DNA from: an uncultured Elusimicrobia bacterium | Lineage (GTDB): Bacteria; Elusimicrobiota; Elusimicrobia; UBA1565; UBA9628 | DNA: 64,000 bases | NCBI GenBank assembly: GCA_964358485.1 | Contig: CAYHPY010000001.1 | Coordinates: 17,382-81,381, forward strand | Direction of reading: 5' to 3' | In this document: positions 19,018 through 58,868 of the stretch, one piece after another | Numbering within the stretch: the stretch's first letter is position 1 | How the letters are laid out: the number at the start of each line of letters is the position of its first letter | The notes under the pieces: generated by a model | Database searches by the model: none | Seen by the model: the letters and a program-made list of their open reading frames with translations, nothing else | What the model was told of the DNA's origin: nothing | Program-made: the position numbers and the translations under genes

Positions 19018-19779
19018 TTAGGTTCGTTTGAAGGCGAAGGGGCCGAAGGCCTGCATGACCGGCATGAGCTCCACGCGGTTGATGTTGACGTGGCGCGGGA
19101 GGGTGGCGGCCCAGAAGATGGCCTCGGCCACGTCCTCGGCGTTCAAGGGCTTGAGCCCGGCGTAGGGCTGGGCGGCCTTGGCCGCGTCGCCCTTGAAGCG
19201 CACCAGGGAAAATTCCGTCTCGGCCAGGCCCGCGGCGATGTCGGTGACCCGGACGTTGGCGCCGAGCAGGTCCGCCCGCAGGTTGAGGGCGAATTGCTTG
19301 ACGAAGGCCTTGGTGGCCCCGTAGGCGTTGCCCCCCGGGTACGGGTGGTCGGCGGCAACCGAACCTAAAAGGATGACATGGCCCTCGTCGCGCTCGACCA
19401 TGCCGGGCAGGAAGGTCCGGACCGTGTAGAGCATGCCGGTGATATTGGTGGCCACCATCTCCTCCCAATCCTCCAGGCGGGCCTTGGGGGCGGGTTCCAG
19501 GCCCAGGGCCAGCCCGGCGCTGGCGATGATGATGTTCACGCCGTCAAAGGGGGGCTTGAGGCTCCTGGCCAGAGCTTCCACGGCCTTGCGGTCGCGGACG
19601 TCCAGAACCGCGGTCAGGCAGGCCTTGCCGAGTTCTTTCTTAAGGGCGGCCAGGCGGTCGGCCCGGCGTCCGGTCGCGATCACCCGGGCGCCGGCCTTGG
19701 CAAATCTGCGGCAGGCGGCGGCGCCGAAGCCCGAGGTGGCTCCGGTCACGAGGACGGTCAGGGTCTTGGGATCAGTCAT
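19018..19779 (-). CDS. SDR-family NAD(P)-dependent oxidoreductase.
   Basis: TGATSGFG Rossmann motif, the NIIIASAG motif, and the YxxxK catalytic motif (YGATKAF). Confidence 0.8.
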   Translation of the reverse strand: MTDPKTLTVLVTGATSGFGAAACRRFAKAGARVIATGRRADRLAALKKELGKACLTAVLDVRDRKAVEALARSLKPPFDGVNIIIASAGLALGLEPAPKARLEDWEEMVATNITGMLYTVRTFLPGMVERDEGHVILLGSVAADHPYPGGNAYGATKAFVKQFALNLRADLLGANVRVTDIAAGLAETEFSLVRFKGDAAKAAQPYAGLKPLNAEDVAEAIFWAATLPRHVNINRVELMPVMQAFGPFAFKRT

Positions 19780-19825
19780 GGAAGTCAAGCAAGTCAAGCA
19801 TGTCAACCACCGGCACCGTTAGCCG

Positions 19826-20872
19826 TTAGGTGTTTTTGAGGATGTCCTTGCCGACGGATTTGGCGATGGTGCCCAGGTCGCGCGCCCAGTCGGGGATGAG
19901 GGGGCGGGTTCCTTGGTAGTTGGACACCTCGTAGCGCTCGAGCTCGTCGGAAATTTGGAGGGCGAGCTTGAGGGCCTCGATGCCGTGCTCGCCGCTGGGC
20001 CAGGGCTTGCGGTTGTGGCGGACGCAGTCCAAAAAGTGGATGTGCTCGCTTTTGAGGGGCTCGGTCTGGGAGAGCTTGGGGCGGATGATCTCGACGTCCC
20101 GGAGGCTCTTGATCACCGGGGATTTGCGCTTGTAGATCTTGAGCGCGGTGTTGGCGTAGTCGAGCGAAATGTAGGAGTCCTTTTGGAAGACCCGGAGCTT
20201 GCGGCATTTCTCCAGGGAGATGCGGCTGGCGGTCAGGTCGGCGATGCAGCCCGTCTTGAAGCGGACGCGGACGTTGGCGATGTCCTCGTGGGGCGAAAGC
20301 AGATTGGCCCCCACGGCCTCCAGGCTTTCGACCTCCGAGCCGACCAAGGTCAGCAGGATGTCCAGGTCGTGGATCATGAGGTCCAGGACGACGCCGATGT
20401 GCGACATCCGGGGATCGTAGGGCCCCAGGCGCTCCACGGTGATAAATCGCGGGTTGCGGATGTGGGGGATGGCCTCCAGGACCGCGGGGTTGAAGCGTTC
20501 CACGTGACCAACCTGCAAAACCGCGCCCCGGGCCTCGGCCATGGCCAGGAGCTGTTTGGCCTCCTCCACCGAGGCGGCCAGGGGTTTTTCGATGAGGCAG
20601 TGGATGCCCTTGTCCAGGGCGGCCAGGCCGACCTCCAGGTGCAGGGGCGTGGGCACCGCGATCACCAGCGCGTCGATCTTGCCCAGGATTTCCTTGTAGT
20701 CCCGGCAGGCGATGGTGTTGGCCTTCCAGGCGGCGAGCTGGGCCCGCCAGATATTGGTGTCGCAGACCGCGACCAGTTCCGCGTCGGCGATCTTTCCCAG
20801 GATGCGGGCGTGGTGGGCGCCGATCTTGCCGGCCCCGACGACCGCGATCTTGATGCGGGACGGTTTGCTCAT
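19826..20872 (-). CDS. Gfo/Idh/MocA-family oxidoreductase in the lipid A cluster.
   Basis: N-terminal Rossmann fold IKIAVVGAGKIGAHHAR and the conserved EKP motif (CLIEKPLA). The start overlaps the lpxI stop (ATGA). Confidence 0.75.
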   Translation of the reverse strand: MSKPSRIKIAVVGAGKIGAHHARILGKIADAELVAVCDTNIWRAQLAAWKANTIACRDYKEILGKIDALVIAVPTPLHLEVGLAALDKGIHCLIEKPLAASVEEAKQLLAMAEARGAVLQVGHVERFNPAVLEAIPHIRNPRFITVERLGPYDPRMSHIGVVLDLMIHDLDILLTLVGSEVESLEAVGANLLSPHEDIANVRVRFKTGCIADLTASRISLEKCRKLRVFQKDSYISLDYANTALKIYKRKSPVIKSLRDVEIIRPKLSQTEPLKSEHIHFLDCVRHNRKPWPSGEHGIEALKLALQISDELERYEVSNYQGTRPLIPDWARDLGTIAKSVGKDILKNT

Positions 20873-21621
20873 GGGAGGTCCTTGAGGCCGATGATGGCCA
20901 TGCCCTGGGCGTCGGCCTGCCGGAGGAACTCGTCCTTGTTGAAGATCATGGTTTTTCCGGCTTCGAGGGCTAAAGCCGAGACTTTAGTCTCGGCAAACAC
21001 TTTTAAGGAGTCCATGCCAAGGACGGGGATGTCGAAACGGAGGTCTTGATTCGGTTTCGCCACTTTAACGACTACCAGGAACGGATCTTTGCCGAAGGAA
21101 CGGGCTAACGAGCTTGCCCGCCTGACGGCGGAATCAGTCCCCTCCATGGCTTCCACGGCGATGACCGCGCCTTCCCGGACCACCACGGTCTGTCCGATGT
21201 CGAACCCCGCCACGGCCTTGGCGGCCCGCCAGCCGAGGCGGATGTCGGCCAGCTCCGCGGCGTCGGGGGCGCGCTTGGTGAGGGGGCCTTCCTGGGCCAT
21301 CAAGTGAGAAAGATAGGTGACCGAGGACAGGAGTTCAATTCCGTCCTTGGCGAACTCGTCGGCGACGGCCTTGAGGATGGTGTCGGTGCGCTTGTCGGCG
21401 AGTTTGGCCAGGATCTTGACCGTTCGCAGGTCCGGGATGATTCCGCCGAAGACCGAAGCGTGCTGGACCTTGCCGGCCATCACGGCCTGGGCCACCCCGG
21501 CGGCCTTGAAGGCCTGGATGGGCTTGTCGATCTGCCCGAGCTTGAAGTAGTGGACCTTGGACACCAGCTTTTCCAGGGCCTGGTCGGTGACCCCGGTCAG
21601 GGCCACGGCCACCACCTCCAC
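20869..21621 (-). CDS. lpxI: UDP-2,3-diacylglucosamine hydrolase LpxI (DUF1009). The ORF-track start is GTG at 21621, but the true start is probably near 21690-21702.
   Basis: DIGQTVVVREGAVIAVEAMEGTDSAVRR and RFDIPVLGMDSL resemble the LpxI core. The conserved N-terminal motif IVGLIAGSGSFPLLFAEEARRAG is encoded in-frame upstream of the GTG, at 21622-21696. Confidence 0.75.
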   Translation of the reverse strand: MEVVAVALTGVTDQALEKLVSKVHYFKLGQIDKPIQAFKAAGVAQAVMAGKVQHASVFGGIIPDLRTVKILAKLADKRTDTILKAVADEFAKDGIELLSSVTYLSHLMAQEGPLTKRAPDAAELADIRLGWRAAKAVAGFDIGQTVVVREGAVIAVEAMEGTDSAVRRASSLARSFGKDPFLVVVKVAKPNQDLRFDIPVLGMDSLKVFAETKVSALALEAGKTMIFNKDEFLRQADAQGMAIIGLKDLP

Positions 21622-25977: not shown

Positions 25978-28512
25978 TTAAAATAGATTCCCCAACCCGA
26001 AGTTGATCTGGTAAAGCCTCTCTCCCGGCCGGTGGTTGAGGCCGTAGCCGTAGTCCAGGCGGATCGGAAACGCGGGGGTCGTGAAGCGCAGGCCGATGCC
26101 GACGTTGGTCTTGAGATCCCGCATGCCGGTGCCGATCCGCATTTTGATGTCCTGAGGCCGGTCCCATGCCGAGCCCATGTCGAAGAAGGCCACCAATTTG
26201 ACGATGCTTCGCCGCCGCTCGCGCGCCAAGGGGAATCCGAATTCGACGTTGAGGACCTCGGAAACCTTGCCGCCGGAGGGAAACCCCACCTCTCCGGACG
26301 CCGCGTAGCCCCGCAGGGAGTCCTGTCCGCCCACGAAGAAGCGCTCGTTGACCGGCACCACCTTTGTCGGGCCGAACGGGGTGATGTAGGAAAGGCGGTT
26401 GAGCATCGCCAGCACGAAAGGGTAGTCCGCGATGGAGAAGACCGTGTGGTAGATCGAGTTGTTGAGGGACGGCTTGAAGAAATGGATGTGGCCCCCGACC
26501 GGCCCGCCGGAGAATTGGGCGCCCAGGGAGTGCCGGCTGCCGCGGGTCGTGTCCCAGATGTTGTCCCGGGTGTCCCGGGCCATGGCCGCGCCCACGACCG
26601 ACTGCACCTGGGTCCCCTCGGAAAGGATTCCCCGGAAGAGGTCTTGGACGCTGTCGATGGTGATTTGCCGGTAGGTGTAGGCCAGGTCCAGGTGGTACTT
26701 GTCGGCTTGGAACCGCGGCCCGAGGTTGATCGAGCCGCCGCGCTGTTTGAGGGTGTAGGCCGAGAGCGAGGTCTGGAAAGGCTGAATCCGCCGGTTGTTG
26801 AAGACCTCCAGGCCGAGGCTCGTGGATTTGTCCGACTTCCAGGGGGTCCAGGAATAGGCGTCCAGCCAGGGCATGTAATAGGAGACGGTGAAGTCCTGAA
26901 CCCGGCCGCCGAACTGCCACTGGACGTTGCTGCGGTGCGCCACGCCCCAGAGATTCATGTGGGCCAAGGAAAGCGTTCCGATGAAGCCGTCCACCGAGGA
27001 GAAGGCCGCCCCGGCCGTCAGCAGGCCCGGCTTGCCTTCCACCACGTCGAAGATCACGTCCACCTTTTCCGGGTCCGGGCGGGGCTGGAGGTCCACCCCC
27101 ACGTCATCGATGAACCCCAGGTTCATGATCCGCTCGCGGCTGCGCCGGATGCGGGAGGCCGAGAAGGCCTCGCCCGGCTTGACGATCAATTCGCGCTTGA
27201 GGACCCGGGTCTTAGTGGCCTTGTTGCCCTCCAAGTCCACGTGGTCGATGTAGACGATGTTGCCTTCCGTGACCTTGTACTCCACGTCCATGAGGTCGGT
27301 CTTGGGGTTGAGGGTCTTGTTCGGCTTGACCCGGGCGTGGAGGCGTCCTTTCTCGGCGTAGAGCTCCTGCACGCCGCGGACGGTCTCTTCGTAGCGCTCC
27401 TGGTTGAAGATCTTGCCCCGGCGGTACTCGATGGCCTTGGCCAGCTCGGTCGAGGTGTAGATGATGTTGCCCGAGAAGGAACTGTCGCCGAACTTGTACT
27501 GCCGCCCCTCGGTCAGCGGGATGACGATGGTGATCTCGGTCTTGTCCGGGTTGTAGGTCCAGGCGGCCGAGCCCACGGACACGTCCAGGTAGCCGTTGTT
27601 GAGGTAGAAGGTCTCGATTTTTTTGACGTCCTCGGGCAGTTCCTTTTCCAAAAAGACCTTTTTCCGGCGGTTTTTCATCTGCTTGAGGACCTTCTTGGGC
27701 TTGAAGGATTTGACCGTCTCGATGCGGATTTCCTTGATCTTGGATTTGGGGCCCTCGACGATGGTGTAGATGACGTCGGCCATCATGGTGGAGGTGTCCA
27801 GGTCCACGCGCGAGCTGACCGTGGCCTCCAGGAAGCCCTTGTCCTTGTATTTCTCGAGAATCTTGTCCTCGTCCTCCCGCAGCTTGATGGAATCGACGGG
27901 GTCCTTGGCTTTGATGGTGGCCGCGTCGCCCAGGGTGCCTTTGCCGACCTTCTTGTTGCCTTCGAAAATGATCTTCCGGGCCAGGGGTTTTTCCTTGACG
28001 ATGAAGGTGAGCAGAATCTGGTGTTCGGCCCCGGCCACCTTCCGGAAATTCTCCGGGATGGGCTTGTCGGTCAGGGTCACGTCGGCCTGGACGCGCTCGA
28101 AGTTTCCCAGGCCGTAGATGGACTGGATGTCGCGGTCCAGGTCGGGCTTGTCGTAAAGATCGCCCTTTTTGGCCTTGACCTGGGAGCGAACTACCGTGAA
28201 TTTGACGTTCTTGTTGCCCTGGACGGCGATTTCGCCCAGCACCCAGGGGCGGGGGACCTCGGGGGACTCAAGGGCGGCGGCCGTGGAGACCGCGACCGCG
28301 GCGGTGGAAAGGTTCACCCCGGAGGCGGCGGAGGAGGAGACCCAAACCGCGGTTTGCGTGGAAATCGCGGTAAAAGTCGAGATCGCGGGGATGCCGGGGA
28401 GGGTGATGGTGGAGACTTGGGGCGGCGTTACGGCGGTGCCGGTGGACGCCGCCGGCACGGCCGGTTGGGACCAGGCCGCCGCCGCCAGGAGAATCCGCAT
28501 GGCAAGTATCAT
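25978..28512 (-). CDS. bamA: Outer-membrane protein assembly factor BamA.
   Basis: 844 aa. Multiple POTRA repeats and a C-terminal Omp85 beta-barrel (…RLDYGYGLNHRPGERLYQINFGLGNLF ends in a terminal F). Canonical position upstream of skp-lpxD. Confidence 0.9.
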   Translation of the reverse strand: MILAMRILLAAAAWSQPAVPAASTGTAVTPPQVSTITLPGIPAISTFTAISTQTAVWVSSSAASGVNLSTAAVAVSTAAALESPEVPRPWVLGEIAVQGNKNVKFTVVRSQVKAKKGDLYDKPDLDRDIQSIYGLGNFERVQADVTLTDKPIPENFRKVAGAEHQILLTFIVKEKPLARKIIFEGNKKVGKGTLGDAATIKAKDPVDSIKLREDEDKILEKYKDKGFLEATVSSRVDLDTSTMMADVIYTIVEGPKSKIKEIRIETVKSFKPKKVLKQMKNRRKKVFLEKELPEDVKKIETFYLNNGYLDVSVGSAAWTYNPDKTEITIVIPLTEGRQYKFGDSSFSGNIIYTSTELAKAIEYRRGKIFNQERYEETVRGVQELYAEKGRLHARVKPNKTLNPKTDLMDVEYKVTEGNIVYIDHVDLEGNKATKTRVLKRELIVKPGEAFSASRIRRSRERIMNLGFIDDVGVDLQPRPDPEKVDVIFDVVEGKPGLLTAGAAFSSVDGFIGTLSLAHMNLWGVAHRSNVQWQFGGRVQDFTVSYYMPWLDAYSWTPWKSDKSTSLGLEVFNNRRIQPFQTSLSAYTLKQRGGSINLGPRFQADKYHLDLAYTYRQITIDSVQDLFRGILSEGTQVQSVVGAAMARDTRDNIWDTTRGSRHSLGAQFSGGPVGGHIHFFKPSLNNSIYHTVFSIADYPFVLAMLNRLSYITPFGPTKVVPVNERFFVGGQDSLRGYAASGEVGFPSGGKVSEVLNVEFGFPLARERRRSIVKLVAFFDMGSAWDRPQDIKMRIGTGMRDLKTNVGIGLRFTTPAFPIRLDYGYGLNHRPGERLYQINFGLGNLF

Positions 28513-28571
28513 CTCCGGGCGTCCCGGAGATGCCTAAAATCCGTGGAAAAAGTCACGCCGTCAGAGTATAC

Positions 28572-28608
28572 TAAAAAGGAAGGGCCCCAAGCGGGGCCCT
28601 TCCTTTTT
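28572..28608. terminator. Bidirectional intrinsic terminator ending the inositol operon.
   Basis: AAAAAGGAAGGGCCCC-AAGC-GGGGCCCTTCCTTTTT. A 13-bp GC-rich stem flanked by A5 and T5 runs, located 43 bp past the MIPS stop. Confidence 0.8.
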
Positions 28609-28650
28609 GCCTCTCTTGTTCCGTTTTCTCTATTGTTTTTCTGTATTTTT

Positions 28651-30084
28651 TTATTTCGGCGTCAGCCGTTTCCCCGGCTTGTTGGCCGGTTTCAGGGCTT
28701 TCTTCGGCGGCGTCGCCGGCTCCGGGGTCCCCAACTCCGGGTCGTAGTAATCCAAGCCGGAATGGTCCAGCACTTCCTCGCCCATCAACAGGCGCAGGGT
28801 GTTCTTGAGCTTCAAGTGCTGGATGAACAGGTCGTGCTCGGGCTGAAGGTCCGGGCGGCATTGGGGGGACTTGAAGTAGAAGGACAGCCACTCCTGGATG
28901 CCCTTGAGGCCCGCCCGCTTGGCCAGGTCCATGAAGAGCACCAGGTCCAGGACGATCGGCGCGGCCAGAATCGAGTCCCGGCAGAGGAAGTTGATCTTGA
29001 CCTGCATGGGGTACCCCAGCCAGCCCGCGATGTCGATGTTGTCCCAGCCTTCCTTGGCGTCGCCGCGGGGGGGGTAATAGTCGATGCGGACCTTGTGGTG
29101 GTACTTGCCGTAGAGCTCCGGATACAGGGCGGGCTCCAGGATGGTGTCCAACACCGACATCTTGCTGAGTTCCTTGGTTTTGAAGGAGCCCGGGTCGTCG
29201 AGGACCTCGCCGTCCCGGTTGCCCAAAATGTTCGTCGAGTACCAGCCGCGCAGGGCCAGCATCCGGGCCTTGAGCATGGGGGCGATGGTGGTCTTCATCA
29301 GAGTCTGGCCGGTCTTGAAGTCCTTGCCGCCGATGGGGGCGCCGGTCTTTTCGGCCAATTCGACCAGGGCCGGGACGTCGCCGCTCAAGTTGGGGGCTCC
29401 GTTGGCGTAGGGGATGCCCTGGGAGACCGCGGCGTAGGCGTAGATCATGGATGGGGGGATGTCCGGGGAGTCGGCTTTCATCGCCGCTTCCAGGCCCGCC
29501 AGGGACTCGTGGGCCGGGGAGTCCTTGGGCAGGACTTCCGTGGACCCGCACCAGACCATGACCAAGCGGTCCACGCCGGTCCGCTTTTTAAAGCTTTGGA
29601 TGTCGGCGATCACCTGCTGGGCCAGCTCCCAGCGCGTGGCTTTTTTCTTGGCGTTGGTGGCCTTGAGGTTCTTGATGTAGGCCGGATCAAAGACCGCCGT
29701 CATGGGCTTGATCTGCTCGAGCGCCGCCTTGACCGGCTCGATCTGGGTCCGTTCCAGCACGCCGCACTTGAGCGCCGCTTCCCACATGTTGTCGGGGAAC
29801 AGGTCCCAGCCCCCGAACACCAGGTCCTTGAGGCCCGCCAAGGGCACGAAATCCTTGATGAGGGGGTGTCGGTCCTCATAGCGCTTGCCCAGGCGGATGG
29901 TCTGCAGTTGGGTGACCGAGCCGATGGGCGTGCCCAGGCCGCGCCGGCAGAGCTCGACGCCGGCGATGAAGGTGCTGGTGACGGCGCCCATGCCGGGAAG
30001 CAGGACTCCGAGTTTTCCGCGCGCGGGAAGAATCCGTTGGGGTTTTGCGCCCGAGCCGCCGTTTCCGGTTTTCATGATTTTCAA
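28651..30084 (-). CDS. myo-inositol-1-phosphate synthase family protein (inositol-3-phosphate synthase) with a Lys/Pro-rich C-terminal tail.
   Basis: The Rossmann N-terminus (GVLLPGMGAVTSTFIAG) and overall architecture resemble bacterial and archaeal MIPS (Ino1). The C-terminal ~35 aa are TPEPATPPKKALKPANKPGKRLTPK. Confidence 0.65.
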   Translation of the reverse strand: MKIMKTGNGGSGAKPQRILPARGKLGVLLPGMGAVTSTFIAGVELCRRGLGTPIGSVTQLQTIRLGKRYEDRHPLIKDFVPLAGLKDLVFGGWDLFPDNMWEAALKCGVLERTQIEPVKAALEQIKPMTAVFDPAYIKNLKATNAKKKATRWELAQQVIADIQSFKKRTGVDRLVMVWCGSTEVLPKDSPAHESLAGLEAAMKADSPDIPPSMIYAYAAVSQGIPYANGAPNLSGDVPALVELAEKTGAPIGGKDFKTGQTLMKTTIAPMLKARMLALRGWYSTNILGNRDGEVLDDPGSFKTKELSKMSVLDTILEPALYPELYGKYHHKVRIDYYPPRGDAKEGWDNIDIAGWLGYPMQVKINFLCRDSILAAPIVLDLVLFMDLAKRAGLKGIQEWLSFYFKSPQCRPDLQPEHDLFIQHLKLKNTLRLLMGEEVLDHSGLDYYDPELGTPEPATPPKKALKPANKPGKRLTPK

Positions 30085-30088
30085 CCTC

Positions 30089-31243
30089 TCAAGTCGTTTG
30101 GGATTGGCTCACGGCGGAGGACGACTGCCCGCGAGGAAGCAGGGTCACCGCCAGGAACAGGGGGGCGCCGATGGCGCCCGCCCATAAGAAATAGTAGGTC
30201 CAGCCGAAACCGGCCATGACCAGCAAAAGGTAGATGAAATCCCGCTGGGCCAGAAATTGCTCGATTTTTTGGATCAGGGAGTCCGCGTTTTCCTCCGGGT
30301 CGGGCAGGCCCTCGCGGCGCGCGCGCAGGCTGGACAGCTTCCGGGCGTAGGCCCGGGCCGCCGACCCGATGATTCCGGCCCCCGCGGCCAGGCCCAGAAC
30401 CAGGGCGGCGGGGCGGCTTCCGGCCCGGATAAATCCCAGGGCCAGGCAGGCGAACAGCGAGATGTGGACAAGGTTGTCTCCCCAGAAGTCGATGTCGGCG
30501 CCGAAATCGGATTCCTGGAAGCGGATTCGGGCCAGCTCGCCGTCGCAGCCGTCCAGGACGGAGTGCAGCCAGACGAGCGCGGCCCCGACCATTCCCGCCG
30601 CCGCCCCCGGGGCCAGAAAGCAGAAGGTTCCGAGAAGGCCGATGATGGAGCTTAGGACCGTCATTTGATTGGGGCTGACCGGGCGGTCGATGATCGCGCG
30701 GGTGAAGGCCAGGGAGATGTAGCGGTCAAAATTGCGGGCCATGAAGCCGTCCTGGGATTTAAATCCCAGGGATAACAGCCAATCCTGCACCGGGCCTTCG
30801 TCCATCGGCAGTTGGAGCAGGACGGTCGAGCCGTCCGGGAGCGGCTGTTTGCGAAACGCGGCGGCATCCTCGGTCCGGAAGGGGATCACCTGGATCACCG
30901 AGACGTCGGAGGCGTCGTGGAGGGAGACATGGACCGGGTAGCCGGCGCCGGCGACGTAGCGCAGGGTTTCCTCACGGATGAAATAGTCCCCGGAGATGGC
31001 CAGGTAGGGGGGCTCGAAGCTCAGTTCCTCATCGCCCCGGCGCGCGGCCCAATTGACCTCGAGGCCCGCGGGCGGGCGCAAGGCGGCGAGGCGTTCCTCC
31101 GAGGGCCGCCGGCCCGCGATCCAGACCCTTTTGAGCCCGGCGCGCTTGAGGGTGTGGAGCTGGCGCTCCAGGACCGAGAGTCCGGCCGTCCGCTCGAAGG
31201 GCAGCTTCTCCCGGTTGACCCAGATGACCGCGTTTTCGATCAT
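30089..31243 (-). CDS. CDP-alcohol phosphatidyltransferase with an N-terminal degenerate nucleotidyltransferase-like domain (DIPPS or PIP-synthase-like).
   Basis: CDP-OH phosphotransferase signature DGCDGELAR(x8)G(x3)D... within a six-TM C-terminal half. The soluble N-terminal half (MIENAVIWVNRE…) is NTP-transferase-like but lacks the G-x-G-x-R loop. The start ATG overlaps the upstream stop (ATGA). Confidence 0.7.
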   Translation of the reverse strand: MIENAVIWVNREKLPFERTAGLSVLERQLHTLKRAGLKRVWIAGRRPSEERLAALRPPAGLEVNWAARRGDEELSFEPPYLAISGDYFIREETLRYVAGAGYPVHVSLHDASDVSVIQVIPFRTEDAAAFRKQPLPDGSTVLLQLPMDEGPVQDWLLSLGFKSQDGFMARNFDRYISLAFTRAIIDRPVSPNQMTVLSSIIGLLGTFCFLAPGAAAGMVGAALVWLHSVLDGCDGELARIRFQESDFGADIDFWGDNLVHISLFACLALGFIRAGSRPAALVLGLAAGAGIIGSAARAYARKLSSLRARREGLPDPEENADSLIQKIEQFLAQRDFIYLLLVMAGFGWTYYFLWAGAIGAPLFLAVTLLPRGQSSSAVSQSQTT

Positions 31244-32259
31244 CGCAGGGCCGCCACCGCCGGACGGCTCCGGGTCGCCGGGGCGTAGATCTTGCGAAGG
31301 GCCGAAACGCAAAAACGAGCTTCCTTCAAGTTCTCGAAACGCCTGCGGGGCTGGGAAAGTTCGGCGTGAAAATCCGCCAGCATGGCGGCCAGCCACTCCG
31401 GGTGGGCCGAGCCCGCGGAGATTTTTTCCGGGAAGTCGAACCGCTCTTGCCGGCCGTCCCGCCGGAGGATGAGATGGTCGTCCCGGAGCTCCAGGACTCC
31501 CTTGCGCCCCTCGATGAGGCCCCCATTGGAGCGCTCGGCGGCGCGCCAAGTCAGCCGGAGCAGGGCCGAGGCGGAGGGAAACTTCAGCAGGACCGTGGCC
31601 TCCTCCTCCACGGCGTCGGGCCCGGGCCGGCGAAGATCGGCGGAAATTCCGACGGGGTCCTCGCCGATCAGGCGGAAGATCTGGTAGAGGGCATGCCAGC
31701 CGTGGTCGACCGCGATGCCCCCTCCGGAGAGCGCGGCTTGGGCGCGCCAGGAGCCCGGGTTGGCCTGTCCGGCGGGCTGGGTGCGCAGGGTGTGGAGCTC
31801 GACGTGGGAGATTTTCCCCAAGGCGCCGCCTTGGACGAGCTCGGCGGCCTTGAGCCAGAGCGGGGAGAACGCCCAGTTGTGGACGGTGAAGACCGTTTTG
31901 CCCCGGCGCCGGGCCGAGGCCTCGATTTTCTCCAAGTCGGGGAGTCCGAGGGCCAGGGGTTTTTCGCAGAGCACGTGAAGGCCGCGGCTGAGCGCCTGGA
32001 GGACCAGGGGGGCGTGGGAGGAGGGAGGGGTGGCGATGACGACGAAATCCAGGGCGGACTCGGAACGGAAAAGGGAAGCCCCGTCGGGATAGAAACGAGC
32101 CTTGGGGAGAAGAATGCGGGCCCGGTCCAAACGGGAGGCAACGGAATCGGCAACGGAATCCAAACGGAAATGGACATTCCCGGCAAAGCCGGGAACGTGG
32201 GCCATCTCCACCACCTGCCCAAAGCCGATGAGGCCGCCGCGCCAGATTCTGTCAGCCAT
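31240..32259 (-). CDS. Gfo/Idh/MocA-family oxidoreductase, candidate inositol or inosose dehydrogenase.
   Basis: Rossmann fold GLIGFGQV… and the EKP motif (LCEKPLA). The family includes IolG myo-inositol 2-dehydrogenase. Overlaps the next gene at both ends. Confidence 0.7.
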   Translation of the reverse strand: MADRIWRGGLIGFGQVVEMAHVPGFAGNVHFRLDSVADSVASRLDRARILLPKARFYPDGASLFRSESALDFVVIATPPSSHAPLVLQALSRGLHVLCEKPLALGLPDLEKIEASARRRGKTVFTVHNWAFSPLWLKAAELVQGGALGKISHVELHTLRTQPAGQANPGSWRAQAALSGGGIAVDHGWHALYQIFRLIGEDPVGISADLRRPGPDAVEEEATVLLKFPSASALLRLTWRAAERSNGGLIEGRKGVLELRDDHLILRRDGRQERFDFPEKISAGSAHPEWLAAMLADFHAELSQPRRRFENLKEARFCVSALRKIYAPATRSRPAVAALR

Positions 32260-33586
32260 GCCGCTTGTAGACCGCCATTAGGGATTCTTCCAGGATGTCG
32301 GCCCCGCGCATCGCTTCATCATGCGTGATGACCAGCGGGGGGTTGATCCGCAGGGAGGCGTTATAGGCCATGGTGACCAATCCTCGGGACAGCGCGGTCT
32401 CGAAGATTTCCCGGCAGATCGGCGCGGGCAGGGGCTCCTTGGTCTTGGGGTTCTTGACCAGTTCGACGCCGATGAGCAGCCCTTTGCCGCGGACGTCGCC
32501 GATCCAGGGAAGGCGGCCCGCCATGGCCTGCAGGCGCTTGAGAAGCGCGGCGCCGACCTTGCGGGAATTCTCGACCAGTTTTTCGGAGAGGATGATCGAC
32601 AGGGCCGCGTCGCAGGCCGCCGAGGCCAGGGGATTGCCGCCGTAGCTCGACGAGGACCCCGAGGGGGCGGCCCAGGGCAGGGAGCTGGCGGTCTCGGTGG
32701 AGGCGATGACGCCCGACACCGGAAAGCCCCCGGCGATGCCCTTGCCGACCGTCATGATGTCGGGAACGACCCCGTCGTGCTCGCAGGCAAACATGGCCCC
32801 GGTCCGGCCGAAGCCCGTGATCATCTCGTCGGCGATCAGCAGGGCCTCCTGCTCGCGGCAAAGGTCCTTGAGGCTTTTTAGAAATCCCGCCGGAGGGATG
32901 ACGTTTCCCGCCGTCCCTTGAATCGGCTCGACGATGATCGCGGCCAGGGCCCCGGAGGTCGCGCGGCGCAGGGTTTGCCGGAGGAAATCCAGGCAGTGGC
33001 CCGCGCAGTCATGCTCGCCGGAGGCTCCGAAGGGGCAGCGGTAGGGATTGGGATAAGGGGAGAGGTAAACCCCGGGCATGAGCGGCCCCAGGCCGTGCTT
33101 GAAGGCGTCGCCCAGCAGGCCCAGCACGCCGCCCGTCTTGCCGTGGAAGCCTCCCCAGAAGGAGACGACCTCGAATTTCTTGGTCCGGCTCTTGGCCAGG
33201 CGCAGGGCCGCCTCGACGGCTTCGGCCCCGGAGGAATAAAGCTGAATCCGGTTCAGGTCCCCGGGGGTGACCTTTGCCAGGTTCTTGACGAAGGAAAGCC
33301 GGGCCTTGGTCGTGAAGCTTCCCACCGTCAAGCGCGCGGCCTGCTCGGCCAAGCGCCGGGCGTACTCGGGGTGGCCGTGGCCGACTGAGGCCACGCAGAT
33401 GCCCGCCACGAAATCCAGGTACTCGCGCCCGTCCTCATCCTTGAGGACGCAGCCGCGGCCGCTCTCCATGGCCAGTTTGGAGTACAGGGCGATCGATTGC
33501 AGGCCCGGGGCCAGGTAATCCTGTTCCTCCTCGAAGAGGGCCAGGGATTTGGGTCCCGCGGAAAAGGCCGCCGCCGAGCGCTTCAT
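32252..33586 (-). CDS. Class-III (ornithine/GABA-type) PLP-dependent aminotransferase.
   Basis: LIADEMITGFGRTGAMFACEHDGVVPDIMTVGKGIAGGFPVSGV carries the PLP-lysine motif typical of aminotransferase class III. Confidence 0.8.
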   Translation of the reverse strand: MKRSAAAFSAGPKSLALFEEEQDYLAPGLQSIALYSKLAMESGRGCVLKDEDGREYLDFVAGICVASVGHGHPEYARRLAEQAARLTVGSFTTKARLSFVKNLAKVTPGDLNRIQLYSSGAEAVEAALRLAKSRTKKFEVVSFWGGFHGKTGGVLGLLGDAFKHGLGPLMPGVYLSPYPNPYRCPFGASGEHDCAGHCLDFLRQTLRRATSGALAAIIVEPIQGTAGNVIPPAGFLKSLKDLCREQEALLIADEMITGFGRTGAMFACEHDGVVPDIMTVGKGIAGGFPVSGVIASTETASSLPWAAPSGSSSSYGGNPLASAACDAALSIILSEKLVENSRKVGAALLKRLQAMAGRLPWIGDVRGKGLLIGVELVKNPKTKEPLPAPICREIFETALSRGLVTMAYNASLRINPPLVITHDEAMRGADILEESLMAVYKRHG

Positions 33587-34449
33587 CGCGTGTCCGCCAG
33601 TTCCCCGCGGAGCAGGCGCAGGCGGGAGCTCAGCTTCCAGGCGATCTGCCGGCAGGCCTCCCCGCGGACCTTGGCGAAGCTAGGCCAGGAGTTGACGTCG
33701 ATCAAGGTGACGGTTCCCGAGGGGGAGACGATGGCGTCCCCGCCGAAAATCTCCAGGCCCAGGGCCGCCGCGCCCTTGGCGGCCAGCGCCGCCAGGTGGT
33801 CGATGACAAACGGGATTCGTCGGGCAGTTTCCGGATCGTGGTAGAACCAGGTGAACCACTGGCCCGGACCGACGCCGTAGAACTTGATCAGGTCCCCGTC
33901 GAGATGCTGCTGGAGCACCAGATGGGCGATTTCCCGCTGGGCGAAGTCCGCGCGGATCATTTCCGCCTCGGCGGCGTCGCGCGCGAAAACCACGTCGTGG
34001 CTGCAGGTGTTGTGGACGTCGCCGCGTTTGACCCAGAAGCCGGAGGGCGCCTGGAAGGCCGTCGGGGCCAGGGGGCCCGGGATGGAGGCGGGCAGGATCT
34101 GCGTCGGCGGGAAGGTGATGGTCCGGTCCTTCGAGAACGCGTCGACCATCCGGGTCCGGTAGCAGGAGAGGACCGCGTCGGGAGGATTGAGCACCAGCGG
34201 GCCGCCTTGCGCGGGGGACGGCAACGCCTTGAGCCGCATCAGGCGGGAGTAGGACTCGCACATGGGGACGATGAGATCCCAACCGTTGAGGTCCGCGGAG
34301 TCGGCCTCTTCGGGGGTCAGCAGTTCCGTGCGGATGCGCAAGCCGTCCAGCTCGCCCATGACCGCCCGCAGGATCAGGGCGTCGTCATCCTCGCGGGCCG
34401 GCGAGTTGGTCAGCTCCCGGTATATTCCCAACGCCTTCAAGCTTTCCAT
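33583..34449 (-). CDS. ATP-grasp protein, inositol-phosphate kinase (ITPK1)-like.
   Basis: ATP-grasp hallmarks: FWVKRGDVH, LVLQQHLDGDLIKFY and IFGGDAIVSPSGTVTLIDVNSWPSF. The last resembles the ITPK1 DVNxFPG motif. Confidence 0.5.
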   Translation of the reverse strand: MESLKALGIYRELTNSPAREDDDALILRAVMGELDGLRIRTELLTPEEADSADLNGWDLIVPMCESYSRLMRLKALPSPAQGGPLVLNPPDAVLSCYRTRMVDAFSKDRTITFPPTQILPASIPGPLAPTAFQAPSGFWVKRGDVHNTCSHDVVFARDAAEAEMIRADFAQREIAHLVLQQHLDGDLIKFYGVGPGQWFTWFYHDPETARRIPFVIDHLAALAAKGAAALGLEIFGGDAIVSPSGTVTLIDVNSWPSFAKVRGEACRQIAWKLSSRLRLLRGELADTR

Positions 34450-35144
34450 GTCCCCTCCGACTGCTTCAGAAATTCCTCGGCCGCCGCCAAATCCTCGGGG
34501 CGGTCCACGTCGATGGTTTTGCCCAGGTCCACGCCGGCCACGGGGGCGCCCTCCGCGATCAGGCTCCCCAGGTAGGAGCGCAGGTTCGGGTAGGCCGCGG
34601 CCGCCGGCAGGCGGCGGGCCAGTTCCGGGTCCAACCGATAGAGGCCGGCCGTCGCGAATTTTTTCCCCTGGGCGTTTTCGCCCAGGGCCGAGATCCGGCC
34701 ATTTTCGTCGAGGTCGGCCCATAGGGGTTTCTCGTCGTTGATATAACTGCTGACCCCGAGGGCATTTGTATAACGCCCGGGGTCGATCATTCGTTCCAGG
34801 GCGGCGGGGGGCAGGAGGCAATCGACGGTGGAGATGACAAACGGCTCATCGCCCAATTCGGCCAAAGTTCCGGCGACGAGCCGGAAGCTCTCCCAAGACG
34901 ATTTCGTGTCCGCCTTTAAAAAGATAAGTTCCGTACCCCTAAATTCCGTTTCCAGAAATTTTTTCACCGCCGTTCCTCTGCTGTTTATTAGGACCACGAT
35001 CTTTTTCATGCCCGCCGCCAAAAGCCCCCGCACGACCCAGCCGATCAGCGGAACGCCCGCCACCGGGACCAAAGGTTTGGGCAGGCCGGGATGAGCCCCG
35101 GCCAGGCGGACTCCGTCTCCGGCGGCGATGATCCCCGCGTTCAC
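34437..35144 (-). CDS. Sugar-phosphate or inositol-phosphate nucleotidyltransferase (NTP_transferase family). Uses a GTG start.
   Basis: Canonical motif IIAAGDGVRLAGAHPGLPKPLVPVAGVPLIGWVVRGL. The GTG start overlaps the HAD stop (GTGA). Confidence 0.75.
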   Translation of the reverse strand: MNAGIIAAGDGVRLAGAHPGLPKPLVPVAGVPLIGWVVRGLLAAGMKKIVVLINSRGTAVKKFLETEFRGTELIFLKADTKSSWESFRLVAGTLAELGDEPFVISTVDCLLPPAALERMIDPGRYTNALGVSSYINDEKPLWADLDENGRISALGENAQGKKFATAGLYRLDPELARRLPAAAAYPNLRSYLGSLIAEGAPVAGVDLGKTIDVDRPEDLAAAEEFLKQSEGTWKA

Positions 35145-35824
35145 GCCGCCTCCGAGAGCCGGGGCTCCAGCTCCGACAGGGTGGAAATCCTCCACCCCTG
35201 GCGGCAGCAGGAGGGCCCGCCGTTTCGGGCCAGCAGGGCGTGGCGCAGCCCCAGGTTTTCGGCCCCGCGCATGTCCCGCGGGATGGAGTCTCCCACCATC
35301 ACGCAGTCCCCGGGCCGAAGTCCCAGGGCTTCGATGGCGAAGCGGAAAAGGCGGGCATCCGGTTTTTCCACGCCCACCGCGCCGGAATCGGCGACCACGT
35401 CGAACAAATCGCGCAGGCCTTCGGCCGCCAGAACGCTTTCCAGGTTTCCGTAGAAATTGGAGACGATCCCGAGGCGAAAGCGGGCCGCCAAGCGCTCCAG
35501 GACGGGGCGGTTTAGGGCGAAATTCGCCCGGCATTCCTTGAGAAATTCATCCACCACCAGGCGTTCCAGATTCGACTCTCCGCCCCGGCCGCGGCCGAGG
35601 CCTTCCAAGACGCAGCGGACTTGGAGGGAGAGGGTTTCGCGTAGGCCCAGGTTCTTGAGGGGGAAGCGACGCGAGAGATTGTCGTCCGAGGCGTAGAAAG
35701 CCTTGTCGAAGTCGGCCCGGTCCCGGACCACCCCGCTTTCCTTATAGATGCGAAAGAATCGGTCCCCCCAGGCGGCGCCCCGGGAATCGAGGGTTCCTCC
35801 AAAATCGAAAAGAATGGATTTCAT
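35141..35824 (-). CDS. HAD-superfamily phosphatase.
   Basis: Motif I LFDFGGTLD (DxDxT-type), motif III K, and motif IV MVGDSIPRD. It is the first gene of the operon. Confidence 0.75.
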   Translation of the reverse strand: MKSILFDFGGTLDSRGAAWGDRFFRIYKESGVVRDRADFDKAFYASDDNLSRRFPLKNLGLRETLSLQVRCVLEGLGRGRGGESNLERLVVDEFLKECRANFALNRPVLERLAARFRLGIVSNFYGNLESVLAAEGLRDLFDVVADSGAVGVEKPDARLFRFAIEALGLRPGDCVMVGDSIPRDMRGAENLGLRHALLARNGGPSCCRQGWRISTLSELEPRLSEAA

Positions 35825-35901
35825 GGTCGGGGGCAATCGCTGATTTTACCAATCCTGGCGCCGACCGTCCAGTCGCTGTTTGGACGGGAATTTGTCTGGG
35901 C

Positions 35902-35930
35902 CTTGACAAACCGGCCAGGACCTGTTATTA
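35902..35930 (+). promoter_or_regulatory. Near-consensus sigma70 promoter upstream of pilM.
   Basis: TTGACA, a 17-nt spacer, then TATTAA. It lies about 110 bp upstream of the pilM ATG, in the divergent region shared with the inositol operon. Confidence 0.55.
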
Positions 35931-58848: not shown

Positions 58849-58868
58849 GGAAATCTTAGAATACTGAC

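Follow-up and report, generated by a model that had tools for sequence, protein, structure and literature searches.

A single transcription unit of seven genes, found in a 64,000-nucleotide stretch of DNA (hereafter the window) from an uncultured Elusimicrobia bacterium, would make a CDP-activated, inositol-derived phospho-head group and transfer it to an acceptor in the membrane, most probably a glycerolipid; I give this reading about an even chance. The predicted route resembles the Kennedy pathway, with a kinase, a cytidylyltransferase, a phosphotransferase and a phosphatase leading to an inositol phospholipid whose head group would here be aminated to an inosamine-type form.

The seven minus-strand open reading frames have high GC3 and lie at 28651-35836, where the sequence-only reading had placed them (Table 1), and by translational coupling they are a single tightly coupled unit. 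Overlaps of 4-13 bp had been described between the genes, which is correct for the first five junctions: the NTP-transferase gene (GTG start after GGAGG) overlaps the HAD gene by 4 nt, the ATP-grasp gene (ATG after GGAGGGG) overlaps the NTP-transferase gene by 13 nt, and the aminotransferase, Gfo/Idh/MocA and CDP-alcohol phosphotransferase genes each overlap the preceding gene, by 4, 8 and 4 nt respectively. The junction between the CDP-alcohol phosphotransferase and MIPS genes is instead a gap of 4-13 nt. A promoter candidate stands directly upstream of gene 1, inside the 200-nt divergent gap to pilM, and at the operon's end, where a bidirectional terminator had been read, lies a terminator-like hairpin with a 17-bp stem (9 G-C pairs), an upstream A-run and a downstream T-run. 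Neighbouring genes are bamA, OmpH/skp, lpxD, lpxC, fabZ, lpxA, lpxI and lpxB.

Table 1. Genes and candidate control signals of the operon (positions in the window).
Feature	Position	Strand	Details
Gene 1, HAD-IA family hydrolase	35141..35836	-	231 aa; Pfam Hydrolase/HAD_2/Hydrolase_like
Gene 2, nucleotidyl(cytidylyl)transferase, sugar/alcohol-phosphate type	34437..35144	-	235 aa; Pfam NTP_transf_3 + NTP_transferase
Gene 3, ATP-grasp enzyme, orphan family; candidate inositol(-phosphate)/inosamine kinase	33583..34449	-	288 aa
Gene 4, class-III (GABA-AT-like) PLP aminotransferase	32252..33586	-	444 aa; Pfam Aminotran_3 E 2e-103
Gene 5, Gfo/Idh/MocA NAD(P) oxidoreductase	31240..32259	-	339 aa; Pfam GFO_IDH_MocA + C-terminal domains
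Gene 6, AF2299-type CDP-alcohol phosphotransferase	30089..31243	-	384 aa; Pfam PF01066
Gene 7, myo-inositol-1-phosphate (inositol-3-phosphate) synthase, MIPS	28651..30075	-	474 aa from ATG; 477 aa from TTG at 30084
Sigma-70-like promoter candidate, TGGACG-17-TAAAAT with TG	35843..35871	-	consensus scan only
Bidirectional intrinsic-terminator-like hairpin, MIPS/bamA gap	28572..28609	.	sequence read + consensus scan

All seven family assignments hold at the superfamily level in Pfam profile searches or in fold, and six of the seven proteins pass Pfam's own cut-offs. The MIPS matches NAD_binding_5 (4e-97) and Inos-1-P_synth (7e-33) and is closely homologous to its Bacteroides counterpart, its best PDB match being 7nwr, the MIPS of B. 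thetaiotaomicron (E 1.6e-161). The CDP-alcohol phosphotransferase (CDP-OH_P_transf, 2e-11; PDB 4o6m, E 2e-21, and 4mnd, E 1e-12) contains six TM helices, and its DGxxDGxxAR...G...D...D motif, at residue 231, is intact. Its AF2 model (pLDDT 86.7) matches the fold of AF2299 over the whole length, then RmlA-type nucleotidyltransferases, which bears out the nucleotidyltransferase-like N-terminal domain read from the sequence; this cytidylyltransferase-like domain is without the GxGxR signature. The separate NTP-transferase carries the signature GDGVRL...PKPL; it matches the Thermococcales IPCT/DIPPS model weakly over its full length and, with an E of 2e-4, also 4jd0, identified as the T. maritima inositol-phosphate cytidylyltransferase (IMPCT) in bioRxiv 10.1101/2025.01.09.632243. 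Motif I of the HAD protein reads LFDFGGTLD, without the canonical Asp+2, and because D[FY]GGT stands for DxDGT in all lineages sampled, the enzyme may not be an ordinary phosphomonoesterase. Elsewhere it is fused to ATP-grasp, CDP-OH_P_transf or PF03706.

The seven-gene set is no chance grouping. Of the 49 Elusimicrobiota loci that are long enough, 44 keep the ATP-grasp gene and all six of its partners colinear, a relative of the ATP-grasp protein is encoded in 175 species-level genomes, and the cluster is carried by Elusimicrobiota and by several further lineages of bacteria, most of them uncultured. Conservation of the neighbourhood, which had been suggested as a check, is thus very strong and reaches other phyla in shuffled orders. 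Locus L084 and a JGI contig share the window's gene order, and in other lineages, Thermoanaerobaculia among them, the set recurs in at least four further orders (L087; L090; L091, L092 and L094; and L172, with MIPS out of view). The NTP-transferase, ATP-grasp and CDP-alcohol transferase, usually with the HAD, form an invariant core linked by domain fusions (HAD-NTP-grasp, NTP-grasp, grasp-CDP-OH and grasp-HAD), to which MIPS and the dehydrogenase/aminotransferase pair are added as modules.

In the proposed route, MIPS would convert glucose-6-phosphate to inositol-3-phosphate, and the ATP-grasp enzyme, acting as a kinase, would supply the activation phosphate, either by making an inositol bisphosphate from inositol-3-phosphate or by re-phosphorylating a free cyclitol. 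The NTP-transferase would then use CTP to form a CDP-cyclitol, from which the AF2299-type transferase would pass phospho-cyclitol to the acceptor with release of CMP. The HAD would strip the left-over phosphate, comparable to the PIP, PGP and DIPP phosphatases of other prokaryotic CDP-alcohol pathways, and its fusions to the CDP-OH transferase and to PF03706 suggest that it acts late, at the membrane. The order of MIPS, CDP-activation and phospho-transfer had been anticipated by the sequence-only reading and fits the closest solved relatives (7nwr, AF2299, IPCT/DIPPS and 4jd0). That the product is a lipid is suggested by the Bacteroidota relatives of the core and by the neighbours found in other lineages, where a cluster-type PF03706 gene (an MprF-like TM protein), MlaA, MMPL and hopanoid genes accompany the cluster and MlaE/F/D genes are interleaved with it. 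An envelope lipid had originally been proposed from the proximity of bamA and the lpx genes. The proposal gains from these neighbours and from the HAD fusions, but the adjacency alone is weak evidence because it is specific to Elusimicrobiota, being absent from every other lineage that carries the cluster.

The operon might instead yield a soluble compound, an aminated di-inositol-phosphate or cyclitol-phosphodiester serving as an osmolyte or periplasmic compound by the logic of DIP or glycerophosphoinositol. I consider this unlikely, and the same holds for the route it would take, in which a CDP-cyclitol would react with a soluble phosphorylated alcohol before the HAD removes the terminal phosphate. 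It has the transferase in its favour, since this enzyme is most similar to AF2299 and IPCT/DIPPS, archaeal enzymes without lipid substrates whose donors and acceptors are soluble, and in CDP-alcohol phosphotransferases a six-TM architecture goes, according to PMC4634129, with soluble acceptors. A. fulgidus AF2299 likewise combines a cytidylyltransferase-like N-terminal domain, six TM helices and the catalytic motif, and the top NCBIfam hit is the Thermococcales IPCT/DIPPS model. The DIP pathway, moreover, needs exactly a MIPS, a cytidylyltransferase (IPCT), a CDP-OH transferase (DIPPS) and a phosphatase, and, like the route predicted here, runs from MIPS through CTP activation and CDP-alcohol phosphotransfer to dephosphorylation. 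However, the score against that model (NF041135) is 73 where the equivalog cut-off is 580, the nucleotidyltransferase signature is missing from the N-terminal domain of the window's transferase, and the operon has an NTP-transferase gene of its own besides. The ATP-grasp, aminotransferase and dehydrogenase genes are all extra to DIP synthesis, and the first, although not needed for it, is part of the invariant core. Groundwater, soil and gut are the sources of the carriers, which are apparently mesophiles rather than hyperthermophiles; the recurrent neighbours and fusion partners (PF03706, MlaEFD, MlaA, MMPL, hopanoid) have membrane-lipid functions; and those Bacteroidota that have the core produce inositol sphingolipids.

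A lipid product also agrees with a system already in the literature. Heaver et al. (2022, Nat Microbiol; PMC9246714) described in Bacteroides vulgatus a putative 'alternative inositol lipid cluster', the function of which they called unconfirmed, compared it to the Kennedy pathway and proposed it as the source of the inositol-phosphoryl-dihydroceramide of B. vulgatus and P. veroralis. Like the window's operon, it comprises an NTP-transferase, a CDP-alcohol phosphatidyltransferase and a HAD hydrolase, with MIPS as a neighbour. Thus the earlier statement that the seven genes match no described pathway stands for the combination as a whole but not for this core. Bacteroidota-type and gut-metagenome clusters contain this orphan ATP-grasp family and this D[FY]GGT HAD family as well, and their usual order (NTP-grasp-CDP-OH-PF03706-HAD) fits the gaps between the published locus tags BVU_RS13095/13105/13115, although the published description (PMC9246714) does not mention an ATP-grasp. 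The Bacteroidota transferase differs (type B) in lacking the N-terminal domain and having extra C-terminal TM segments, the sampled Bacteroidota clusters contain neither aminotransferase nor dehydrogenase, and, in contrast to that usual order, no cluster-type PF03706 gene lies within 10 kb of the window's operon.

Two further routes are comparable. The mycobacterial and B. thetaiotaomicron PIP-synthase route (CDP-DAG and inositol phosphate to PIP, then PI) shares the MIPS-derived inositol phosphate, a six-TM PF01066 enzyme and a phosphatase as the last step. Unlike the window's set, it needs no soluble cytidylyltransferase or kinase, its phosphatase is PgpA-like rather than a HAD, and the PIP-synthase model reaches a score of 41 where its cut-off is 170. 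Kennedy/Lic-type activation follows the same three-role logic as the trio of ATP-grasp, NTP-transferase and CDP-alcohol phosphotransferase with its pairwise fusions, but the putative kinase here is an ATP-grasp rather than a choline/ethanolamine-kinase fold, and the alcohol would be a cyclitol.

The head group is probably amine-bearing, to judge from the dehydrogenase/aminotransferase pair. Scyllo-inosamine (streptomycin and rhizopine pathways) and kanosamine (NtdC/NtdA/NtdB, RifL/K/M/N) are formed by just such a Gfo/Idh/MocA dehydrogenase and an aminotransferase, in company with a phosphatase and/or kinase, and the window's operon likewise sets a same-superfamily oxidoreductase and a PLP aminotransferase beside a HAD phosphatase and putative kinase. 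The dehydrogenase would oxidise one ring hydroxyl to a ketone and the aminotransferase would transaminate it, giving inosamine instead of inositol and thus a zwitterionic analogue of phosphatidylinositol. The aminotransferases of those pathways are of the DegT/AHBA-synthase type and their products are secondary metabolites, not membrane constituents, whereas the window's aminotransferase is class III and its operon is without glycosyltransferases and amidinotransferases. Known inosose aminotransferases belong to the DegT class rather than class III. Both enzymes of the pair fall under all NCBIfam equivalog cut-offs, the dehydrogenase with weak matches to IolG and scyllo-inositol dehydrogenase.

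It is likewise improbable that the product is a plain inositol phospholipid without an amine, as proposed for B. vulgatus, with the pair doing something else, such as epimerising myo- to scyllo-inositol via inosose or making an amine that has nothing to do with the head group. In favour of this, 34 of 36 long metagenomic loci have the core but not the pair, which makes this much the more frequent form, the aminotransferase resembles a generic GABA-AT-type enzyme, and presence or absence of the pair does not divide the ATP-grasp sequences into separate groups. Yet the pair sits inside the operon with 4-8-nt overlaps, and its two genes are retained in 72 of 74 and 67 of 68 testable Elusimicrobiota loci. 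In the sampled loci neither gene occurs alone; the two travel together through several gene-order rearrangements, and MIPS adjoins them in every case but L172 (in L091 and L092 it is the dehydrogenase gene that lies directly beside MIPS). The aminotransferase is 45-58% identical to cluster-linked orthologues of other phyla, well beyond generic class-III similarity.

The ATP-grasp enzyme shares its fold with the ITPK1/Ins134_P3_kin kinases, but the earlier label 'ITPK1-like' is not sustained by any threshold: PF05770 (Ins134_P3_kin) gives 11 bits against a cut-off of 23, Pfam returns only sub-threshold ties among RimK, YheCD and Ins134_P3_kin, and fold searches place the ligases ArgX, RimK, LysX, DcsG and Ddl slightly above inositol-phosphate kinases. 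Searched against the PDB, the family profile finds sequence hits only to AtITPK4 and human ITPK1 (E 0.03-0.3), the alignment covering the Mg/ATP segment fGxDxi...iDxNxxPsf. These hits, the invariant trio and the fusions point to a kinase-like role, and since aminating and non-aminating clusters interleave in the ATP-grasp tree, the kinase does not obviously track the amine. I think it quite unlikely that the enzyme is, as had also been entertained, a ligase that attaches an amino acid or carboxylate to the amine of inosamine (or to some other nucleophile), giving an amide-decorated head group. The fold ranking would allow it, but the ATP-grasp belongs to the core and is present in by far the most clusters that lack both aminotransferase and dehydrogenase (34 of 36 metagenomic loci), where there would be no amine to acylate; in addition, its fusion partners are the NTP-transferase, CDP-OH transferase and HAD, and Heaver et al. 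(PMC9246714) attribute a plain inositol-phosphoryl-dihydroceramide to the alternative cluster.

Least probable of all is that phospho-inosamine ends on lipid A, LPS core or another envelope glycan as a charge modification like phosphoethanolamine or aminoarabinose, not as bulk phospholipid, although the Elusimicrobiota operon lies directly upstream of bamA-skp-lpxD-lpxC-fabZ-lpxA-lpxI-...-lpxB, an amine-bearing phospho-substituent would lower negative surface charge, and Heaver et al. (PMC9246714) tie inositol lipids to antimicrobial-peptide resistance. Against it, the lpx/bamA adjacency is confined to Elusimicrobiota and the operon has no EptA-, ArnT- or LicD-type transferase. No PF01066 enzyme is known to act on glycans.

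An inositol phospholipid, here probably aminated, thus remains the preferred product, and the operon would extend to Elusimicrobiota and other lineages a bacterial inositol-lipid route hitherto proposed only from gut Bacteroides genomes.

The seven open reading frames between 28.5 and 35.9 kb lie on the minus strand and have a high GC content at third codon positions (the window as a whole has a G+C content of ~65%); start codons were picked by a Shine-Dalgarno-like sequence upstream. Reading frames, coordinates and families bear out the operon anatomy described in the sequence-only reading, and the 4-13-bp overlaps claimed there hold at five junctions (in order, 4, 13, 4, 8 and 4 nt), the exception being the junction of the CDP-alcohol phosphotransferase and myo-inositol-1-phosphate synthase (MIPS) genes, which is a 4-13-nt gap. 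A consensus scan places a -35/-10-like site ahead of the HAD gene, the first of the operon. Downstream, on the same strand, follow bamA, OmpH/skp, lpxD, lpxC, fabZ, lpxA, lpxI, a second Gfo/Idh/MocA oxidoreductase, an SDR and lpxB, and upstream lie the divergent pilM, pilN, pilO and secretin genes.

Features of the operon in the window, with the fraction of testable loci in which each partner of the ATP-grasp gene is retained within Elusimicrobiota
Feature	Position	Strand	Retained/testable loci
HAD	35141-35836	-	72/74
NTP-transferase	34437-35144	-	74/77
ATP-grasp	33583-34449	-	
Class-III aminotransferase	32252-33586	-	72/74
Gfo/Idh/MocA oxidoreductase	31240-32259	-	67/68
CDP-alcohol phosphotransferase	30089-31243	-	58/60
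MIPS	28651-30075	-	48/52
Hairpin after MIPS (17-bp stem, A-run and T-run at its flanks)	28572-28609		

The second oxidoreductase (19826-20872, minus strand) and the SDR (19018-19806, minus strand) sit between lpxI (20869-21621) and lpxB (16992-18101); the former, placed as it is among the lipid A genes, may be a sugar-nucleotide dehydrogenase of the GnnA kind, and no aminotransferase was seen beside it. An open frame of 1395 codons at 26032-30219 (plus strand), antisense to bamA and MIPS, is, like several long antisense frames nearby, an artefact of high GC and not a gene. Elsewhere in the window, G+C dips from about 0.65 to 0.57 at 58001-60000, and no tRNA genes turned up when the whole window was scanned for them.

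Pfam gave above-threshold matches for six of the seven operon proteins, and none of the seven reached an NCBIfam equivalog. The identity of MIPS is confirmed, since both Pfam domains exceed their gathering scores (PF07994, 325.9 bits with a cut-off of 25; PF01658, 113.5 bits with a cut-off of 27) and the protein matches the crystallised B. thetaiotaomicron enzyme 7nwr at E 1.6e-161 (541 bits). The membrane transferase scores 44.8 bits against PF01066 (cut-off 22), retains an intact catalytic motif DGxxDGxxAR...G...D...D (DGCDGELARIRFQESDFGADIDFWGD, residue 231) and is modelled with six transmembrane helices; by sequence and model it qualifies as a member of the CDP-alcohol phosphotransferase family, whose hallmark is a membrane domain with several helices that bears D(x)2DG(x)2AR...G(x)3D(x)3D. 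Among solved structures it comes closest to A. fulgidus AF2299 (E 2e-21), which its model (pLDDT 86.7) overlays end to end, and to the archaeal IPCT/DIPPS enzymes. With the model of bifunctional IPCT/DIPPS (NF041135) it scores 73 bits where 580 are required, the alignment covering the transmembrane part only, and with that of phosphatidylinositol-phosphate synthase (NF045883) 41.3 bits where 170 are required. The N-terminal 160 residues match, after AF2299, the fold of RmlA-type nucleotidyltransferases, so the nucleotidyltransferase-like domain proposed earlier stands at the level of fold. A reading of its sequence reveals no GxGxR...K signature, so that activation is presumably performed by the stand-alone NTP-transferase rather than by this domain. 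The NTP-transferase itself aligns weakly, though over nearly its full length, with 4jd0, the inositol-phosphate cytidylyltransferase of T. maritima (bioRxiv 10.1101/2025.01.09.632243). The oxidoreductase is a generic Gfo/Idh/MocA member, assignable at superfamily level only (PF01408/PF22725), reaching 58 bits with the inositol 2-dehydrogenase IolG model TIGR04380 (cut-off 355) and 48 with the UDP-GlcNAc 3-dehydrogenase model (cut-off 450). Similarly generic is the aminotransferase, a GABA-AT-like class-III enzyme (PF00202); known inosose aminotransferases belong to a PLP class other than class III.

The third operon protein received no direct sequence assignment from Pfam, NCBIfam or phmmer against the PDB, and structure prediction alone led to ATP-grasp; with the three-domain fold and a Mg-binding D/E-x-N motif in place, this superfamily label is established. 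The narrower "ITPK1-like" label of the sequence-only reading does not hold up as more than a hint: the window protein scores 11.1 bits against PF05770 (Ins134_P3_kin; cut-off 23), 11 of 31 family members match that model below threshold, level with RimK and YheCD, and the best PDB profile match of the family is 7pup at E 0.029. The family is a large one: at 50% identity, a profile search collects 1006 clusters when the limit is E<=1e-3 and 282 when it is E<=1e-30.

The window proteins are identical to those of a metagenome-assembled genome in NCBI/ENA, and their close homologues are all named Elusimicrobia or Elusimicrobiota. When each species was represented by a single genome, 175 genomes proved to encode a relative of the ATP-grasp protein, and the best 80 of these comprise 73 labelled Elusimicrobia or Elusimicrobiota, five labelled only "bacterium" and two with other labels. 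When all seven proteins were compared by tblastn, gene order was the same in 44 of the 49 loci whose length allowed all genes to be checked. pilM is divergent upstream in Elusimicrobiota loci and bamA-skp-lpxD-lpxC usually lies downstream. The position next to bamA and the lpx genes had been taken as a clue to an envelope lipid; the adjacency is real, but in the contexts read from other lineages it fails as a general property of the cluster, and being specific to Elusimicrobiota it carries less weight. The contigs L028 (JANOTL010000083.1, labelled Pseudomonadota) and L031 (CALRXP010000185.1, labelled Candidatus Endomicrobium trichonymphae) hold an Elusimicrobiota-type cluster at the same level of identity as the remaining Elusimicrobiota loci, and look like cases of mis-binning or mislabelling. 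Some Elusimicrobiota also have a second, paralogous locus (L057, 1-7810; L060, 7700-13035) with phospholipase A1 on the opposite strand, ATP-grasp, Usp, dienelactone hydrolase, CDP-alcohol transferase and MIPS, and with no aminotransferase, oxidoreductase, NTP-transferase or HAD adjacent; L060 shares one MAG, JACPOW01, with a full cluster, L041.

It is recurrence beyond Elusimicrobiota that converts synteny to functional evidence. Of ten contexts read around more distant relatives of the ATP-grasp protein, six have the complete set of seven and four only a core (the invariant core genes being NTP-transferase, ATP-grasp, CDP-alcohol transferase and HAD), which, together with the order shared within Elusimicrobiota, supports the gene neighbourhood seen in the window. 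With the aminotransferase written AT and the oxidoreductase GFO, L084 and a JGI contig read dxs-ispH-PF03706-HAD-NTP(-fused-)grasp-AT-GFO-CDPOH-MIPS; the JGI protein has cluster mates named Thermoanaerobaculia, and L084 is flanked by the same genes. L090 reads MMPL-MlaA-PF03706-x-MIPS-HAD-NTP-grasp-AT-GFO-CDPOH, after which come squalene-hopene cyclase, hpnH, hpnA-like and hpnG, and L087 reads NTP-MlaE-MlaF-MlaD-grasp-AT-CDPOH-GFO-PF03706-HAD-MIPS. In L091 and L092 the order is GFO-MIPS-grasp-CDPOH-PF03706; HAD and NTP lie on the opposite strand, and AT comes next. The four core-only contexts are L085, in which a grasp::CDPOH fusion adjoins hopanoid genes and the squalene-hopene cyclase falls in a 90%-identity cluster with Thermoanaerobaculia proteins, L089 from Oligoflexia, and L086 and L088, which I call Bacteroidota-type because a neighbouring DUF5686 protein resembles the BT_1527 homologue described by Heaver et al.

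Lipid-related genes recur beside these clusters. The phospholipid ABC transporter genes MlaE, MlaF and MlaD (L087, 5506-8023) split the NTP-transferase from the ATP-grasp gene, and the seven-gene set of L090 is flanked by MlaA and an MMPL transporter. Hopanoid genes adjoin the cluster in Thermoanaerobaculia-type contigs (L085, 10104-16969; L090, 12436-16870), the set being squalene-hopene cyclase, an hpnH-like radical SAM protein with DUF3463, an hpnA-like epimerase, an hpnG-like nucleosidase and SQS_PSY, and dxs-ispH lies by the cluster in L084 and L085. A tie of the acceptor, or of regulation of the cluster, to isoprenoid lipids is a possibility.

A gut-biased metagenome scan added 36 loci, each 14 kb or longer. 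ATP-grasp, HAD and the CDP-alcohol transferase occur in all 36, the NTP-transferase in 34, and MIPS and the cluster-type PF03706 membrane protein in 20 each; the aminotransferase was found in just two, the same two that carry the oxidoreductase. Core genes are variously fused (HAD-NTP-grasp, NTP-grasp, grasp-CDPOH, grasp-HAD, HAD-CDPOH, HAD-PF03706). In the loci sampled, oxidoreductase and aminotransferase travel only together, and MIPS lies beside them each time but in L172, where it is out of view. The same cluster accommodates two architectures of CDP-alcohol transferase: type A, AF2299-like, with the N-domain and six transmembrane helices (window, L084, L085, L090), and type B, which has no N-domain, the motif near residue 90 and extra C-terminal transmembrane segments (L086, L088, L089, L091, L092). 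Both are found with the aminotransferase/oxidoreductase module.

The core places the operon beside a known proposal. Heaver et al. (PMC9246714) describe an "alternate cluster" of NTP-transferase, CDP-alcohol phosphatidyltransferase plus a HAD hydrolase beside MIPS in B. vulgatus and Prevotella, and propose for it a Kennedy-like CDP-inositol route to inositol lipids that they call unconfirmed; their text mentions neither an ATP-grasp protein nor an aminotransferase. The window operon holds these same four genes together, and shares the ATP-grasp and HAD families with Bacteroidota-type and gut-metagenome clusters. It differs in carrying the dehydrogenase/aminotransferase module, in having no cluster-type PF03706 gene nearby or, by tblastn, anywhere in the window, and in its type A transferase, whereas Bacteroidota-type loci have type B; orthology of the window enzyme to the Bacteroidota one finds no support, with no tblastn match at 1e-10 to L086 or L088, nor to the transferases of L089, L091 and L092. 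The usual gut order is NTP-grasp-CDPOH-PF03706-HAD (L096-L109 and others), which fits the one-tag gaps between BVU_RS13095, RS13105 and RS13115, where I infer that ATP-grasp and PF03706 fall; Heaver et al. note a BT_1521 homologue in the vicinity, which may or may not be this PF03706 gene. The window operon is thus an extended relative of the putative Heaver pathway. That the combination is undescribed, as first supposed, holds within the literature searched for the set of seven, of which no description was found (nor of an inosamine phospholipid), but not for the core.

The window has a PF03706 (LPG_synthase_TM) gene of its own at 47545-48582 (plus strand), ~12 kb from the operon, between 45746-47584 (612 aa, no Pfam match) and a methyltransferase (48579-49586). 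It has no significant similarity to cluster-linked PF03706 proteins, whereas those of other phyla resemble one another (E 1e-27); in all likelihood it represents another subfamily, one that goes with the glycan genes next to it (Wzy_C, epimerase, flippase, glycosyltransferase).

What might these enzymes do? All of the enzymatic steps proposed here are ones that I infer. The MIPS product is already phosphorylated at D-3, so any scheme has to explain why a kinase and a HAD are needed. Most economically, the constant trio would take the Kennedy/Lic roles of kinase, cytidylyltransferase and phosphotransferase: the ATP-grasp enzyme would add a second phosphate or re-phosphorylate the cyclitol, the NTP-transferase would activate that phosphate with CTP, the membrane transferase would install the phospho-cyclitol, and the HAD would remove the leftover phosphate, as happens after the PIP, PGP and DIPP synthases. 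That the HAD is found fused to the transferase (HAD::CDPOH) and to the membrane protein (HAD::PF03706) speaks for its acting late and close to the membrane. Most simply, the oxidoreductase and aminotransferase would convert one ring hydroxyl to a ketone and then an amine, giving an inosamine head group.

The HAD is itself unusual. It belongs to the superfamily by Pfam and its motifs II-IV look intact, but motif I reads D[FY]GG[TC] rather than the canonical DxDx(T/V) in the window (35141-35836) and in every lineage sampled (L084, L085, L087, L088, L091, L092, P0255, P0295, P0343, P0350). The nucleophile Asp is retained and the Asp+2 general acid/base, expected in motif I of a HAD phosphatase, is Gly in every phylum sampled. 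To judge from this motif, the protein may not be a simple phosphatase, and may instead be a phosphotransferase or an enzyme for an unusual phospho-substrate.

Among other readings, a soluble phosphodiester product is possible, because AF2299 and DIPPS, the closest solved relatives of the window transferase, work on substrates other than lipids, and CDP-alcohol phosphotransferases with six TM helices are reported to take soluble acceptors (PMC4634129). The ATP-grasp protein may also be a ligase, as had been suggested for amide formation, but acylation of an inosamine is disfavoured, since the protein also occurs where the cluster has no genes for making an amine; aminating and non-aminating clusters are interleaved in the ATP-grasp tree, so that its substrate cannot be inferred from phylogeny. 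GnnA/GnnB-like amination of lipid A (UDP-GlcNAc3N) was rejected, the aminotransferase being class III and not DegT and the pair travelling elsewhere with MIPS and not lpx. An aminoglycoside-type secondary-metabolite cluster was also rejected, on the lack of glycosyl- and amidinotransferases, the integral membrane transferase, the core-genome context and the phylum-wide conservation.

Returning to the phospho-cyclitol lipid, the main thrust of the earlier interpretation is upheld, and strengthened by comparative genomics. Inositol lipids are deemed rare in bacteria, and the CDP-DAG/PIP route is the only one characterised. I would propose, tentatively and with more doubt than conviction, a new class of zwitterionic phospho-aminocyclitol ("phosphatidyl-inosamine"-type) lipids made by a CDP-cyclitol route, in which new ATP-grasp cyclitol(-phosphate) kinases would catalyse the first committed step and would also be the missing, unannotated enzyme of the alternative pathway in human-gut Bacteroidota; such a lipid would count among the regular constituents of the envelope in Elusimicrobiota, Thermoanaerobaculia and further uncultured lineages. 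The orphan ATP-grasp family emerges as a constant, overlooked fifth enzyme of the "alternative" CDP-inositol-type cluster, which is widespread far outside gut Bacteroidota, and many environmental lineages have the extended cluster, whose dehydrogenase/aminotransferase pair leads one to expect a head group of the amino-cyclitol type. Should this be confirmed, environmental lipidomics would gain a new class of polar lipids to use as a biomarker, four poorly annotated protein families would be given a function, and the Bacteroides pathway, with its links to capsule expression, antimicrobial-peptide resistance and gut fitness, would have a mechanism that can be tested.
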